Below are positions 29,638-46,341 of a DNA stretch of 64,000 nucleotides, in pieces (the first letter of the stretch is position 1; each line of letters starts with the position of its first letter). Source of the DNA: Candidatus Bathyarchaeota archaeon (lineage in GTDB: Archaea; Thermoproteota; Bathyarchaeia; 40CM-2-53-6; RBG-13-38-9). Made by a program: the position numbers and the translations under genes. The stretch lies in contig JAOZGX010000103.1 of NCBI GenBank assembly GCA_026015185.1, positions 2,127-66,126 on the forward strand, in the 5' to 3' direction. The notes under the pieces are model-generated. The model searched no databases and was not told where the DNA came from. It saw nothing but the letters and a program-made list of their open reading frames with translations.

Positions 29638-31089
29638 TTAATGAGGGCGTTTACTCTTTCTACCAACTCTATAAGTCAGAATTATTGCAGCTAAAGCTAT
29701 TATAAGAGCTATAATCGCTATTGTTTCTAGAATTGGAGGGCTCACTTGAGCAGGTATTACTGGTTCTCCCTGTCTCATACGTTCTGCTTCTGCTCTCATT
29801 TTGACCAGATGTTCCCTCATCGGAGCATATCCTTCCCAATGCATGTAATCCGAGCTCTCATGGAAAGCACCTTGGAACATTCGGTTATGCCATTGTTCTA
29901 GCATTAAGTAGAGATCTTGCTCTATAGGGGTAGGAGAGGTATAGAAAGCAAGCATAAATGGATAGTTGTATGGATAAGTCTCTGGCTTCTGGATCACCCC
30001 CTCCTCGTACAGCTCTGCGACTAATCTTACACCTTCTGCAAGCAAATGAATTGACTCCTTAGTTGTAGCTTCATATTGTGTAAACTGTTTATCTATATAC
30101 GACTCTGAGTGGCATCTAGAGCAAATCTGTATTTCTTTCTGCCTCACACTTTGGAATTCTTCATCTGATAATCTAGCTATTCTCAAATCCTTTACAACAT
30201 CAAGAAGAACGCCTGGTTCGCCTTCAGGGGTGAGAACTGCGAGACCTTTTAAAACTTCAGCATTATCTTCTGCCCACTCTGGATCATCTGCTAAAGGCCC
30301 AACACCAGGGCCTAGTAGGCCATAAAAACCATAGGCTGTGATAGAATTATGATCTCCGTTGTCCATATGACATGTGATACAAACTGGGGCTTGATTGGGC
30401 CACTGTTCGTTATAAGGATAATCCCAAGTATAGTTTTCTCCTCTTGTATCATAGATTATGCCATGCTTTGAGCTTATGAACATTTCATAAGTTGGGTGGT
30501 CAAATCCCATGTGACAGGTTCTACATGCCTCTGGTTTTCTAGCCTCAATAACAGAGAATGTATGCCTAGTATGGCAAGAGTCGCATTTTGCTCCAGGCGT
30601 ATCAGCGACACCAGGTGTACTTGGTCCCCAATTTGGAATGTCTCCTGACGCTCCAATTCTATGGCAGTAACCGCAACCCTTCCACTTTATTGTTTCATTT
30701 ATTTGCAGCACATTCTCGGCTACGACCTCCATTGCAAGCCATGCCAGATGATGTTTTCCTTCAACGAATTGCTCAACCCTTTGGGGATGGCATGATTTAC
30801 ATGGCGTTTCAGTTGGCATTACTAAAGCTTCATGATTCTGGCCATGGCAGGTATCACAATAGATTTCGTTTTGAGCATGTTTACTCATATTCCAAGATTG
30901 GACCAATCCAGGCATAGTTGTTACATGACAATTTATGCAATCTTGACCAGTATAATTGCCCTTCATCTGCTGGGCCTGAACTGCAATAATGCTCTCTTCT
31001 GCATTGCTCAAGGTATAGTTACTAAAAAGCAAAGAAGAAGTGGTGAATGAAATTAGAAGCAAAATGAATATGATACTGTTATATCGCAT
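29638..31089 (-). CDS. Octaheme c-type cytochrome (HAO/octaheme-reductase-like), signal peptide and C-terminal TM anchor
   Basis: Eight CxxCH motifs read in the translation: CINCH, CDTCH, CKSCH, CGYCH, CDSCH, CRTCH, CITCH, CSRCH. The likely start is MRYNSIIFILLLISF. C-terminal hydrophobic helix plus RKSKR. Confidence 0.8.
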   Translation of the reverse strand: MRYNSIIFILLLISFTTSSLLFSNYTLSNAEESIIAVQAQQMKGNYTGQDCINCHVTTMPGLVQSWNMSKHAQNEIYCDTCHGQNHEALVMPTETPCKSCHPQRVEQFVEGKHHLAWLAMEVVAENVLQINETIKWKGCGYCHRIGASGDIPNWGPSTPGVADTPGAKCDSCHTRHTFSVIEARKPEACRTCHMGFDHPTYEMFISSKHGIIYDTRGENYTWDYPYNEQWPNQAPVCITCHMDNGDHNSITAYGFYGLLGPGVGPLADDPEWAEDNAEVLKGLAVLTPEGEPGVLLDVVKDLRIARLSDEEFQSVRQKEIQICSRCHSESYIDKQFTQYEATTKESIHLLAEGVRLVAELYEEGVIQKPETYPYNYPFMLAFYTSPTPIEQDLYLMLEQWHNRMFQGAFHESSDYMHWEGYAPMREHLVKMRAEAERMRQGEPVIPAQVSPPILETIAIIALIIALAAIILTYRVGRKSKRPH

Positions 31090-31171
31090 CCTCTTCAATG
31101 GGATTAGCTCCAAATAAAAATAGTCTATCAATACATTCTATGTTTTTTATTTATTTAATAATTTGCATGTA

Positions 31172-32609: not shown

Positions 32610-32819
32610 ATGACTTGTTATTTTAGACATATGAAACCCATCTTCAATAAAATGGGATTAGAGATTACAAATGAAAATAAAAAAGAAATTGATAAAGCCA
32701 TTCACGATATTGTAGGCGTAGAGTACAAGAATTGCTCAGCTACTTGGAGAGAAGTTAAAAAGAGGATTAGTGAGGACGAGGAAAGTTTCACTTTTAAACT
32801 AAAAGAATCTGTTTTATGA
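32610..32819 (+). CDS. Hypothetical 69-aa protein
   Basis: Isolated ORF in the hemA-arsM gap. Charged, non-repetitive. No homology recognised. Confidence 0.3.
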   Translation: MTCYFRHMKPIFNKMGLEITNENKKEIDKAIHDIVGVEYKNCSATWREVKKRISEDEESFTFKLKESVL

Positions 32820-32838: not shown

Positions 32839-33675
32839 CTATCGCTTGGAGCCTCTGACTTTAATGCTGATAACCGACTCAGCGACCTCTTTTATCTTCT
32901 CTGATGCTATATCTTGCTTTTCGATTATTGCTTTGGCAGTTGGATCGTTAGCCATTAACTCAACAGGGAAAAAGGTCTCATCTATAACATCAACTTGTTG
33001 AAAACCAGCTTTCTTTATCATTTGGAGATATTCATCTTTCTTAATCGCACCAGACAGACAACCGATGTATGCTTCAACGCTATTCTTAATCAGATCAGGA
33101 AGTTCTTTTAGCAATACTATGTCAGAGATCATCAGTCTACCTCCAGGTTTGAGCACTCTAAAAGCTTCGTTAAAGACTCTTTGCTTGTCGGGTGAGAGAT
33201 TAATTACACAATTTGAGACTATTATATCAACTGAATTATCAGCAGCAGGCAGATTCTCTATTTCTCCAAGCCTGAACTCAACATTCTTAAAATCGCTTTT
33301 TGTTGCGTTTTCTCTTGCTTTCTCGACCATCTCAGGCGTCATATCTATACCGATAACTTTTCCATTCTCACCAACTTTTTTCGCTGCAAGGAAACAGTCA
33401 AGGCCTGCACCCGAACCAAGATCAAGCACAGTCTCCCCTTCCTTTAAACCAGCAAGTGCTGTTGGATTTCCACAACCAAGACCCAAATTCGCACCTTCAG
33501 GAACAACTTTGAGTTCTTCATCAGTATAACCAATATTCTTGCTGATATTTTGAGCCATATCGGCGCCTCCACAACAAGAATTCATAGGAGCACAGCAAGA
33601 GCTATCCTGTTTAGCTATGTCAGCATAACCTTCTCTAACAACTTTCCTTACTTTCTTTTCTTCCACATTAATCAC
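32839..33675 (-). CDS. arsM: Arsenite S-adenosylmethionine methyltransferase
   Basis: N-terminal vicinal cysteines SSCCAPMNSCCGG, LGLGCGNPTALAGLKEGETVLDLGSGAGLD (SAM motif I), IVSNCVINLSPDK and AYIGCLSGA. This pattern of conserved Cys plus the UbiE-like fold is diagnostic of ArsM/AS3MT. TAG stop. Confidence 0.85.
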   Translation of the reverse strand: MINVEEKKVRKVVREGYADIAKQDSSCCAPMNSCCGGADMAQNISKNIGYTDEELKVVPEGANLGLGCGNPTALAGLKEGETVLDLGSGAGLDCFLAAKKVGENGKVIGIDMTPEMVEKARENATKSDFKNVEFRLGEIENLPAADNSVDIIVSNCVINLSPDKQRVFNEAFRVLKPGGRLMISDIVLLKELPDLIKNSVEAYIGCLSGAIKKDEYLQMIKKAGFQQVDVIDETFFPVELMANDPTAKAIIEKQDIASEKIKEVAESVISIKVRGSKR

Positions 33676-33696
33676 CTTCTAATTTAATCTTCATTA

Positions 33697-33990
33697 TTAT
33701 TTTTCAGCAATCTCTTCCATCATTGGACCTAGTATGCCCTTGACCATTCCTGTAAAATCTTCAACTTTAATCAAAGAAATACATGATACATTCCCATCTT
33801 TCTCCCAGCTTACAACCGCTAATTTATCTCCAGAATGGATTTTTGCCTTTTCTCTTATCTCCTTCGGAAGTACCATTTGACCTCTATCATCTACGCTTAT
33901 TACCGATTCAACCTTGCAACAACTTATTCCTTTTTCAGTTTCTGGACAACAGGATTCTTTTTCGTCGATTTTATCCAATTTAATCATCAT
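33697..33990 (-). CDS. AbrB/SpoVT swapped-hairpin DNA-binding domain protein with an N-terminal CCx8CC motif (candidate metalloid-responsive regulator)
   Basis: ESCCPETEKGISCC then DDRGQMVLPKEIREKAKIHSGDKLAVV (AbrB-domain signature). The CC...CC module resembles the one at the ArsM N-terminus. Confidence 0.6.
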   Translation of the reverse strand: MMIKLDKIDEKESCCPETEKGISCCKVESVISVDDRGQMVLPKEIREKAKIHSGDKLAVVSWEKDGNVSCISLIKVEDFTGMVKGILGPMMEEIAEK

Positions 33991-34053
33991 TGCAATGATG
34001 ATTCAGATTATTTAAATATTTCTGAAAATTCAGAATAAACTGAAAATTAATGC

Positions 34054-34065
34054 TAGCGCGCGCTA
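34054..34065. promoter_or_regulatory. Perfect palindrome TAGCGCGCGCTA, 64 nt upstream of the CC-AbrB gene start
   Basis: Read directly. A TATTTAAAT AT-box lies between the motif and the ATG on the coding strand. Confidence 0.4.
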
Positions 34066-34071
34066 TAATAA

Positions 34072-34617
34072 TTAACTCTCTTTACTAAACACCTTGAGGG
34101 CAGGGCAACCGATCTCTCTCTGTTTGCAGTATTTGCATGCTAAAGAACCTCTTACAAATGCATTACCGCCAAGTGAAAGAATGCTTAAGATTATCAATAG
34201 AGCTAGAATGGTCCAAGAGAAATCTGTAACTAGAAGGATAATACCGAAGGCCATGGGAATAATAAATACCAGAAAGTCCGGCACAAGATCAATCTTTTTT
34301 ATTTCTTTTTCAACAAATTTTTTTGGATTTCCTTTCTTGAAGAATAAAGAGCATAATTTTCCCCTGCCAAATGCGCAGATTTTGTCATAGTAATAACAAT
34401 CTACACAACTTCCTTTGAGTAATCTAATTTCAACCCAGATTATGTAAAGTAAAAATAAAACAACAAAGAGTATTCCAAATCTTGACACAATGTACATTCC
34501 TATTGCATAAATTGATACAGCAAGAAGATTGGATAGAAAAACAATCCATGAGGGCATATTTTCATAACTTATTGACTTGCTCAAGAAATCACCTGCCAAA
34601 CAAAATTTATCGTGCAC
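34072..34617 (-). CDS. Cys-motif integral membrane protein (4 TM; CVDCYYYDKICAFGRGKLC and CKYCKQREIGC)
   Basis: ORF with two CxxC-containing loops. No family recognised. Confidence 0.5.
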   Translation of the reverse strand: MHDKFCLAGDFLSKSISYENMPSWIVFLSNLLAVSIYAIGMYIVSRFGILFVVLFLLYIIWVEIRLLKGSCVDCYYYDKICAFGRGKLCSLFFKKGNPKKFVEKEIKKIDLVPDFLVFIIPMAFGIILLVTDFSWTILALLIILSILSLGGNAFVRGSLACKYCKQREIGCPALKVFSKES

Positions 34618-40407: not shown

Positions 40408-40833
40408 TTGAAGGAAGAAGCGGTAACCGAGAGTATTGAGAACTATTTGGAAGCTTTGTTGAGGGCTAACGAACAAGGCCAAGATTTAACCCAAATAAAA
40501 TGGATCGCTGAGTATCTTGAAGTAGCTCCTCCTAGCGTAGTAGAAATGTTGCGGAAGATGGAGAAAGAAAATTATGTTGAATATTTACCGAGGAAAGGAG
40601 TTAGACTTACCGGTAAAGGGAAAAAGATTGCAAAAGCGGTTATTCGCAATCATCGCCTTATAGAGGTCATGATGGAGAAAACACTTCATATACCTATAGA
40701 TCACGAAAGCGTTTGTGGAATAGAGCATCATATGTATAGAGATTTCACTAATGCATTATGCACTTTATTAAATCATCCTAGAAAATGCCCACACGGGGAA
40801 TTAATTCCTAAAGGTGAATGCTGTCCTAAATAA
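40408..40833 (+). CDS. DtxR/MntR-family metal-dependent transcriptional regulator with a C-terminal Cys tail
   Basis: wHTH IAEYLEVAPPSVVEMLRKMEKENYVEY and metal-site helix RNHRLIEVMM, plus CPHGELIPKGECCPK. Confidence 0.8.
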   Translation: MKEEAVTESIENYLEALLRANEQGQDLTQIKWIAEYLEVAPPSVVEMLRKMEKENYVEYLPRKGVRLTGKGKKIAKAVIRNHRLIEVMMEKTLHIPIDHESVCGIEHHMYRDFTNALCTLLNHPRKCPHGELIPKGECCPK

Positions 40834-45930: not shown

Positions 45931-46341
45931 TCAAGTTCGCTCATTTAGGAATTTTAAAATTTTTTCATGTATTAAATTGCGTATTCTTCTAAAATTCTCT
46001 TTTGATGTCATGTAAGGATCCTTGATATCCCAGACAATTATTTTTTCTTTATTGTTGGATGGTAGGTTCATAAAATCATTCTCAATAGAGCCATCCAGCA
46101 AAATAACCTTATCAGCCCAATTCAGCAAGTCTTGAGTGACTCCTTTTGGCTTATGATTGGTAATATTGATTCCTAATTCACGCATGATCTCTACAGAACC
46201 ATCTATAACATGCGTATATGGTTTTACTCCAGCACTTTTTGCTTCATCATGATTATTGTTCTTTTTTGATTCAAAATTGAATAATCCTTCAGCCATTGGA
46301 CTTCTGCAAGCGTTGCCTATACAAACAAATAATACTTTCAA
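45931..46341 (-). CDS. Low-molecular-weight protein-tyrosine-phosphatase family / ArsC-type arsenate reductase
   Basis: P-loop VLFVCIGNACRS (CX5R) with downstream Cys residues, typical of thioredoxin-coupled ArsC. Confidence 0.7.
   Translation of the reverse strand: MKVLFVCIGNACRSPMAEGLFNFESKKNNNHDEAKSAGVKPYTHVIDGSVEIMRELGINITNHKPKGVTQDLLNWADKVILLDGSIENDFMNLPSNNKEKIIVWDIKDPYMTSKENFRRIRNLIHEKILKFLNERT

Follow-up and report, generated by a model that had tools for sequence, protein, structure and literature searches.

HgcC, a cysteine-rich AbrB/SpoVT-fold protein encoded ahead of arsM, as a candidate regulator of arsenic and mercury methylation genes

The closest described relatives of the system reported here are found beside the mercury methylation genes hgcAB. 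McDaniel et al. (PMC7438021) built a hidden Markov model of a "putative transcriptional regulator" that lies immediately upstream of hgcAB and was found in 112 genomes; this regulator is probably the family now named HgcC. In Zhang et al. (PMC10349881), an AbrB/PrlF/MazE-like gene, termed "toxin-antitoxin", was noted ahead of hgcA, chiefly in archaeal genomes, and was put forward as a regulator; neither cysteines nor an operator were mentioned for it. A standalone pairing of hgcC with arsM is described in neither paper, and in a search of the literature for hgcC, or for AbrB/SpoVT/MazE proteins with arsM, we found no characterization of the family and no description of an hgcC-arsM cassette. 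A different regulator, ArsR-like and with an As(III)-responsive derepression logic, serves hgcAB in Pseudodesulfovibrio mercurii ND132 (bioRxiv 10.1101/2022.10.17.512643). Here we analyze a 64-kb stretch of Candidatus Bathyarchaeota DNA (the window), in which an hgcC gene directly precedes arsM, the gene for an arsenite methyltransferase, and is itself preceded by a conserved palindrome.

In its equivalog-level score against the family model NF040962, its length, its AbrB core, its CC motifs and an operator that also stands before hgcA-linked copies, the window protein is like other HgcC proteins. It differs in that the 64 kb hold no hgcAB and that its partner is arsM, as in most of its closest relatives; the protein is a member of a named but uncharacterized family, in a context unlike the family's published definition. 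The window (36% GC) is archaeal in character, with TFB and RPA genes present, and its HemA is 100% identical to the HemA of a Candidatus Bathyarchaeota metagenome-assembled genome. A scan of species-representative genomes yielded at least 540 hgcC loci, and the 80 closest to the query were examined in detail. These cover Bathyarchaeia, Methanoperedens, other Methanomicrobia, Thermoplasmata, Aminicenantes, Dehalococcoidia, Clostridia and Actinobacteria, as well as Nitrospirae, Thermodesulfobacteriota, Aerophobetes and Zixibacteria, their archaeal or bacterial class being taken from record titles. A second sample consisted of arsM-centered metagenomic loci, 73 of which were informative.

HgcC and its pairing with arsM

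The hgcC gene lies on the minus strand at 33697..33990 and encodes a Cys-rich AbrB/SpoVT-fold protein of 97 aa (ATG at 33990) or 93 aa (TTG at 33978), as identified with NCBIfam, Pfam and an AlphaFold2 (AF2) model. The protein is made up of an N-terminal CC-x8-CC tail (C14, C15, C24 and C25), in which the motif ESCCPETEKGISCC was confirmed, a predicted swapped-hairpin core at approximately residues 27-75 that includes C70, and a C-terminal helix (residues 76-96). It matched the NCBIfam equivalog NF040962, "HgcAB-associated protein HgcC", at 119.2 bits over residues 24-93 (cut-off 70), as well as TIGR01439 (AbrB; 36.0 bits vs 28.3) and, just past the threshold, Pfam PF04014 (MazE_antitoxin/AbrB; 26.0 vs 24.7, residues 33-60). 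Compared with the PDB, the family profile matched SpoVT at 9e-5 along with AbrB-family DNA-binding domains, the PKEIR motif being identical. In the AF2 model, the core (residues 30-80) has a predicted local distance difference test (pLDDT) score of ~87; the Cys-rich N-terminus ahead of it is disordered, and a helix forms the C-terminus. The top Foldseek matches of this monomer were SpoVT, AbrB, Sso7c4, C68 and MazE, with probabilities up to 1.0 and E-values of only ≥0.02, and every top match is a DNA-binding swapped-hairpin protein. An initial annotation of the window had placed an AbrB/SpoVT domain behind the CC pairs, and PF04014, TIGR01439, the PDB profile match and Foldseek all agree with that placement. 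The same annotation had called the protein novel-looking; it belongs instead to the named family HgcC, of the AbrB/SpoVT fold class.

This family comprises 2633 clusters (90% identity) at E ≤1e-3, and 337 clusters (50% identity) at E ≤1e-10, of which the best 150 all stand alone and are 65-140 aa long. When 150 diverse cluster representatives were aligned with the window protein (n=151), near-invariant positions were PKEIR, D34, R36, G37, Q38, P42, K43, R46 and K56; of these, PKEIR and the basic residues of the loop (R36, K43, R46 and K56) align with the DNA-recognition domain of SpoVT. Cysteine was found at position 25 in 114 of these sequences, at position 24 in 91, at position 70 in 122 and at position 69 in 103. 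Among close relatives, C70 never varies, and C14, C15, C24 and C25 hardly do. HgcC has in common with AbrB, SpoVT, MazE and Sso7c4 the DNA-recognition domain, including the PKEIR loop-helix, but differs in its C-terminal helix and in lacking a toxin partner. MazE and AbrB autoregulate via promoter-overlapping sites; to our knowledge, no AbrB/SpoVT/MazE/Sso7c4 protein carries a sensor tail rich in cysteines or is linked to metal(loid) genes. Neither the Pfam nor the NCBIfam scan detected an ArsR winged helix-turn-helix in HgcC (PF01022/HTH_20), which places the protein outside the ArsR family, nor did they detect an ArsD or thioredoxin-fold match, and the fold search yielded AbrB-type proteins only.

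The second gene of the operon, arsM (32839..33675, minus strand), encodes an arsenite S-adenosylmethionine methyltransferase of 278 aa, identified with NCBIfam, Pfam and phmmer. Its GTG start codon lies 21 nt past the hgcC stop codon, with an AGGTGA resembling a ribosome-binding site before it. The product scored 365.5 bits against NCBIfam NF008823 (PRK11873; cut-off 263), contains a class I S-adenosylmethionine-binding Rossmann domain (Pfam Methyltransf_31 at 1.5e-47, with Methyltransf_25 and Methyltransf_11), and was matched by phmmer to the solved ArsM structures 5evj (Chlamydomonas; 2e-36) and 4fr0 (Cyanidioschyzon; 3e-32). In the phmmer alignment to 4kw7/4fr0, C68 (GCGNP), C156 (SNCV) and C206 (GCLSG) correspond to the As(III)-binding C72, C174 and C224 of Cyanidioschyzon ArsM (CmArsM), and these three cysteines are kept in 61-65 of 68 cassette ArsMs. 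The motifs SSCCAPMNSCC, GCGNPT, SNCVINL and GCLSG are all present. The cut-off passed, the structural matches and the aligned cysteines bear out the earlier ArsM call: the product is a member of the arsenite methyltransferase family, and methylation activity is predicted for it. No database record matched the exact sequence. In comparison with CmArsM and its Chlamydomonas counterpart CrArsM, the window ArsM has the same catalytic domain and the same three As(III)-binding cysteines, but it is 278 rather than ~380 aa long, lacks their C-terminal domain, and has a CC-x5-CC rather than a single Cys in its N-terminus. This CC-x5-CC lies at residues 27-35, and the PDB alignment begins only at residue 63, the fourth, N-terminal cysteine of CmArsM (C44) lying outside the comparison. 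A 69-aa ORF without a family match (32610..32819, plus strand) converges on arsM and is ~90% conserved in close relatives.

The cysteine modules of the two cassette proteins resemble each other. Partner ArsMs open theirs with SCC[A/S/T]P-x3-SCC in 42 of 68 sequences, and the tail of HgcC has the similar form SCC[A/P/S]P...CCKVE; the earlier suggestion that the N-terminus of the 97-aa protein mimics the ArsM module thus holds at the family level, SCC[A/S/T/P]P...CC being found in both. Within the window, the CC-x8-CC of HgcC and the CC-x5-CC of ArsM are the only CC-x(4-12)-CC stretches in any of the reading frames.

The pairing of the two genes recurs widely. In 70 of the 80 loci, hgcC is followed directly, on the same strand and a few tens of nt away, by an arsM whose product is 55-77% identical to that of the window, with gaps of 10-60 nt between hgcC and the enzyme gene. 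The other neighbors present in more than six of the loci are ATP-binding cassette (ABC)-transporter ATPases (12 loci, variable in position and strand), HgcA (9-10) and a nitroreductase-like gene (8); HgcB follows in six. No obvious toxin, arsR, arsB/acr3 or arsC was seen among the 25 most recurrent neighbor families, most of which were not scanned against domain libraries. In one Candidatus Methanoperedens locus (L025, 3529..6656), a single operon reads hgcC-arsM-(nitroreductase-like gene, 190 aa)-hgcA-hgcB with gaps of 14, 41, 4 and 3 nt, and similar layouts are found in L011, L014, L028 and L035. Operons of this type place arsenic and mercury methylation genes behind one hgcC promoter. Directly before hgcA, hgcC is found in L002, L038 and L054, and as the second copy of L012. 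In the window, hgcC adjoins arsM without an hgcAB neighbor, and the context that gives NF040962 its name is absent: a search of those ORFs in the window that reach at least 110 aa turned up no further ars, mer or hgc gene, and neither hgcA nor hgcB was found anywhere in the 64 kb by a degenerate DNA pattern and a six-frame regular expression, no frame containing the HgcA cap-helix motif.

In the metagenomic sample, hgcC lies upstream of arsM in 43 of the 73 loci. The initial annotation had proposed, as its own check, a search for CC..CC-AbrB genes beside arsM in other genomes, and both samples (70/80 genomic and 43/73 metagenomic loci) answer it in the affirmative. Loss of the gene can be seen in three others (L102, L139 and L142), where a decayed hgcC upstream of arsM consists of a 15-codon ORF (MVKEEGRNGKRCCQI followed by a stop codon) that keeps only the N-terminal CC region and is preceded by a degenerate operator with three mismatches. 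Three further contigs (L081-L083), ~91% identical to the window and one of them from a sample labeled SMTZ1, are fully syntenic with it (liv genes, membrane protein, arsM, hemA and multiheme cytochrome) and lack the window segment 33679..34071, that is, hgcC with its promoter and operator, having 84 unrelated bp in its place. They also carry an extra Spore_YtfJ-like gene after arsM (near window position ~32852) that the window lacks, so that arsM is flanked by two indels between the window and these near-identical contigs. A tblastn search of HgcC against the PLSDB plasmids gave no match.

Operator and promoter of the cassette

In the 120 nt upstream of hgcC, compared among 79 loci, one pattern is common to both domains: the palindrome TTCTGA-N4-TCAGAA, which in the window lies at 34020..34035 and reads TTCTGAATTTTCAGAA on the minus strand. 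At two mismatches or fewer, this core operator was present in 71 of the 79 upstream regions, in 33 of them perfectly and with a gap that is always 4 nt; at the same threshold the background was 32 of 1485 120-nt windows (~2%) and 18 of 790 shuffled upstream regions. The site is also rare elsewhere. The copy at 34020..34035 is the only one with no more than one mismatch in the 64-kb window, and in ~0.7 Mb of loci the other such sites were those of two further hgcC promoters and one inside an unrelated ORF (L036). Further, the operator comes and goes with the gene: in the metagenomic set it was found in 28 of 35 loci with hgcC vs 1 of 30 arsM loci without it. The same operator precedes the hgcA-linked hgcC copies of L002, L012 and L038.

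The promoter region of the window contains several elements on the minus strand around this palindrome. The auxiliary upstream half-site TCAG (34040..34043) lies within AATTTTCAG, one copy of a direct repeat of that sequence, and corresponds to the family consensus TCAG-N5-TTCTGA-N4-TCAGAA; the direct repeat CTGAAAATT occurs at 34022-34030 and 34040-34048. Three nt downstream of the operator is a TATA-like box, TTTAAATA (34009..34016), a candidate archaeal promoter of hgcC-arsM that presumably works as a TATA box (archaeal consensus TCAGAAAAgTtTAAATATTC.GAA). A downstream half-site, TCTGAAT (34001..34007), lies between this box and the start codon and corresponds to the conserved TTC(A/T)GAA that comes after the archaeal TATA-like element, so the box of the window is flanked by operator half-sites on either side. 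In the 41 archaeal loci, the consensus is TCAG-N5-TTCTGA-N4-TCAGAAAA-g-TtTAAATATTC(A/T)GAA, with the TATA-like element 19 nt past the start of the palindrome; the half-sites bracket this element and span the expected position of the B recognition element (BRE). In the bacterial loci, TTGACA is mostly found 38 nt upstream of the palindrome, and the half-sites fall at or just downstream of the -10 element, near the predicted transcription start. This geometry is that of a promoter-occluding repressor, and we infer binding by HgcC from the co-occurrence of gene and site. A sigma-70 promoter and terminator scan of the window was uninformative because the host is archaeal, and Rfam and tRNA scans of the whole window gave no match.

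Measured from the palindrome, ATG 33990 lies 48 nt away and TTG 33978 lies 60 nt away, the latter distance being the archaeal median. The 93-aa product that would begin at TTG 33978 is of the commonest length in the family, and ATGATTAAA aligns with the Shine-Dalgarno region GGTGATAAA of relatives. Given this typical length, typical operator distance and Shine-Dalgarno alignment, the true start of hgcC may be TTG 33978; alternatively, the mRNA may be leaderless from ATG 33990. The ATG is spanned by a 22-bp perfect palindrome, AATCATCATTG/CAATGATGATT (AATCATCATTGCAATGATGATT; 33982..34003), the only perfect palindrome of at least 18 bp in the window, which as RNA would form a hairpin of -9.4 kcal/mol (z-score -2.9). 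It was not seen in the upstream regions of the other hgcC loci and is specific to the window. It may serve as a second operator, or the start region may be masked by its hairpin.

Elements and genes around the cassette

All three minus-strand ORFs singled out by the initial annotation were present at the positions given above and below, with the motifs quoted for them. It had also drawn attention to a GC-alternating palindrome upstream of the 97-aa gene, and this sequence, TAGCGCGCGCTA, is indeed present at 34054..34065, with 63 nt between it and ATG 33990. As an operator it was rejected, the conserved cis-element being TTCTGA-N4-TCAGAA at 34020..34035. Six 12-mers of this type (≤1 mismatch) occur in the window, vs 0.03 expected, and all are intergenic (1632, 3860, 5808, 12977, 34054 and 43065); in related promoters the element is not conserved, save for a GCGCGC in a few loci. 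Further (GC)3+ tracts are found at 2155, 14452, 16977, 20455, 24474 and 58407, and 11 of 14 (GC)3+ tracts in the window are intergenic. The GC-alternating palindromes often stand right after a stop codon, beside an A/T-rich TATA-like run. This genome-wide intergenic motif may act in promoters or terminators, may form a tract of Z-DNA or may be a site for a protein.

The third ORF (34072..34617, minus strand) encodes a membrane protein of 181 aa that, as first described, has four predicted transmembrane helices and two Cys segments, C71-x2-C74..C81..C89 and C161-x2-C164..C171. The orphan family to which it belongs is well conserved and counts 913 homologs; seven cysteines are invariant (SCxxCYYYxKxC..C and ACKYCKQREIGCPA), and members from ANME-1, Aenigmarchaeota, Planctomycetes and Nitrospirae are ~60% identical. 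Comparison with Pfam, NCBIfam and the folds in the PDB gave no match for the protein. In the window its gene lies 10 nt from a livF-like ABC ATPase gene of a liv ABC operon, and elsewhere it is found with P-type ATPase/MscL, ATP-grasp and prenyltransferase genes. The suggestion that it forms part of the arsM module did not survive comparison: tblastn found no match in any of the 80 hgcC loci, and its contexts elsewhere are unrelated.

The gene at 45931..46341 (minus strand), 12 kb away, encodes a protein with a low-molecular-weight phosphatase fold (Pfam PF01451) that had been labeled ArsC-type, a label we do not retain. The protein is most similar to ArsC models yet falls far below their cut-offs (69.4 bits vs 174.3 for the thioredoxin-type ArsC model TIGR02691). 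Its only cysteines are C7 and C12 (of the CX5R P-loop), the Cys82/Cys89 relay pair being absent, and its neighbors are ferredoxin-thioredoxin reductase beta, Rieske and acyltransferase-type genes rather than ars genes. Elsewhere in the window, a multiheme c-type cytochrome gene (497 aa; 29638..31131, minus strand) adjoins hemA in this Bathyarchaeota genome, and a gene for a DtxR-family iron-dependent repressor lies at 40408..40833 (plus strand), 6 kb from the hgcC-arsM cassette.

A proposed role for HgcC and its alternatives

We consider it reasonably probable that HgcC acts, as a dimer or tetramer, as an AbrB-type autorepressor: it would keep hgcC-arsM, and hgcAB where present, repressed until a thiophilic metal(loid) at its cysteine pairs releases it. 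In this model, hgcC-arsM would be a self-contained two-gene cassette, and HgcC a small dimeric, probably tetrameric, DNA-binding protein that would bind TTCTGA-N4-TCAGAA and the flanking TCAG/CTGA half-sites. These sites bracket the archaeal BRE/TATA, or sit at or just past the bacterial -10 element, and binding there would repress hgcC-arsM or, in some Methanoperedens, hgcC-arsM-(nitroreductase-like)-hgcA-hgcB. The conserved vicinal cysteines, in the flexible N-terminal SCC..CC tail and as a CC in strand beta-4, would then take up a thiophilic metal(loid), expected to be As(III) for the window protein and plausibly Hg(II) for hgcAB-linked copies, and this uptake would loosen HgcC from the DNA and switch on the methyltransferase. 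Family membership, fold class, gene pairing, the conservation of the operator and its co-occurrence with hgcC, and the conservation of the cysteines are shown by the sequence data. The proposed logic is that of ArsR/SmtB proteins, in which a small autoregulated repressor, encoded first in its operon, senses As(III) through cysteine thiolates, and derepression leads to expression of the ars or hgc genes. The structures differ: ArsR/SmtB proteins have a winged helix-turn-helix, whereas HgcC has a predicted swapped-hairpin beta-barrel, no PF01022 match and another operator, and its cysteines are found in a disordered N-terminal tail and a beta-strand.

Several points weigh against this proposal. 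Binding to DNA, repression (the sign of the regulation), and the response to a metal(loid) along with its identity are all inferred. The first CC pair (C14/C15) is present in just 45-63 of the 151 aligned sequences, and the window protein has Ser69 (SC at 69-70) where most members have CC; the AF2 model, a monomer whose N-terminus has a pLDDT <50, gives no geometry for a Cys site. With 41% of the close arsM genes in the metagenomic loci lacking hgcC, the protein is dispensable. Since the 80 loci were those closest to the query out of at least 540, the arsM rate of 70/80 may not hold across the family and the arsM:hgcA ratio is no family estimate. A putative regulator, probably of this family, was reported upstream of hgcAB in 112 genomes (PMC7438021). 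The 80 loci served both to define the operator and to count it for the first time, and the metagenomic set is only a partly independent replicate; this replicate, together with the contrast between loci with and without hgcC, reduces the circularity and does not remove it.

Other roles for the protein have to be weighed against the same evidence. HgcC could be mainly a metal(loid) chaperone, or an ArsD-like chaperone and weak repressor, which would pass As(III) or Hg(II) from its cysteines to the Cys-rich N-terminus of ArsM or the C-terminal CC of HgcB and use the AbrB fold for dimerization or partner contact. ArsD itself has vicinal cysteines and is both a chaperone and a weak repressor. The vicinal Cys pairs and flexible tail of HgcC, which are like the N-terminal motif of ArsM, the tight and probably translational coupling of hgcC to the enzyme gene (gaps of 10-60 nt), and the association with two different methylating enzymes, ArsM and HgcAB, would all fit such a role. 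We nevertheless think it unlikely, since a chaperone alone leaves unexplained a palindromic operator that comes and goes with hgcC; further, the invariant residues are those of the SpoVT/AbrB DNA-recognition loop and helix, none of the best 150 cluster representatives is fused to ArsM or HgcA, and HgcC gives no ArsD or thioredoxin-fold signal. With ArsD it has in common the vicinal Cys pairs on a small protein encoded beside its client, and a dual regulator/chaperone role is conceivable, but HgcC is unrelated to ArsD in sequence and fold, its client would be a methyltransferase rather than the ArsA ATPase, and it has a strong conserved operator.

The operator evidence fits equally well an autoregulator that senses redox state or oxygen (by thiol-disulfide exchange), sulfide or polysulfide, or an Fe-S cluster, and so limits the methyltransferase genes to anoxia; each HgcC monomer has four well-conserved cysteines, as two CC pairs, and the hosts of all 80 loci are anaerobes of sediments or groundwater. 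This too we regard as quite unlikely, given that the only recurrent regulated genes encode enzymes acting on thiophilic metal(loid)s and that the tail copies the SCC[A/P]P..CC motif of ArsM. Vicinal CC pairs, moreover, typically bind As(III)/Hg(II) and are unusual as ligands of Fe-S. Very unlikely, in our estimate, is a protein blind to metals, whether an autoregulator or a nucleoid-type AbrB, with structural cysteines and an arsM linkage due to mere co-transfer. Many AbrB/SpoVT/Sso7c4-like proteins bind DNA ligand-free, and the N-terminal CC pair does vary across the family, but at two positions the Cys pairs show strong conservation from phylum to phylum, hgcC is linked specifically to As/Hg methylation genes amid variable genomic contexts, and there is a single specific operator site, not many. 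Finally, the label of type II antitoxin (MazE/PrlF-like), which comes from databases and from the KEGG/COG terms prlF/mazE/abrB used in PMC10349881, and which agrees with PF04014 MazE_antitoxin as the best Pfam match, describes a function that HgcC almost certainly does not have. That match spans only the common AbrB-type hairpin (residues 33-60), the downstream gene is arsM in the window and in 70 of the 80 loci, no MazF/YhaV-like toxin is adjacent, and none of the 25 most recurrent neighbor families, most of them not domain-scanned, is an obvious toxin. The toxin-antitoxin reading was rejected because no toxin partner was seen among these neighbors.

More tentatively, and with somewhat less than even confidence, we suggest that HgcC founds a structurally new class of transcription factors that sense metal(loid)s, in which a swapped-hairpin AbrB/SpoVT domain is joined to a vicinal-cysteine tail that mimics ArsM. 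Such a regulator would use one operator in archaeal and bacterial promoters, control arsenic methylation and, in many lineages, hgcAB, link the two both physically and regulatorily, and spread as a mobile cassette.

Environmental science still asks what controls the methylation of arsenic and mercury by microbes, and for hgcAB only a single ArsR-like regulator, from one bacterium, has been tested. In many uncultured archaea and bacteria with an anaerobic life, Methanoperedens and Bathyarchaeia among them, the HgcC family appears to stand first in arsM operons and at times in arsM-hgcAB operons, and its "HgcAB-associated" name and "antitoxin" labels may understate or misstate its main context. 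The 16-bp operator and the few candidate ligand cysteines make the hypothesis directly testable. If it is true, the AbrB fold would join the small set of metalloregulator scaffolds, and HgcC would provide a marker of when the genes for arsenic and mercury methylation are expressed, as well as a compact biosensor part.

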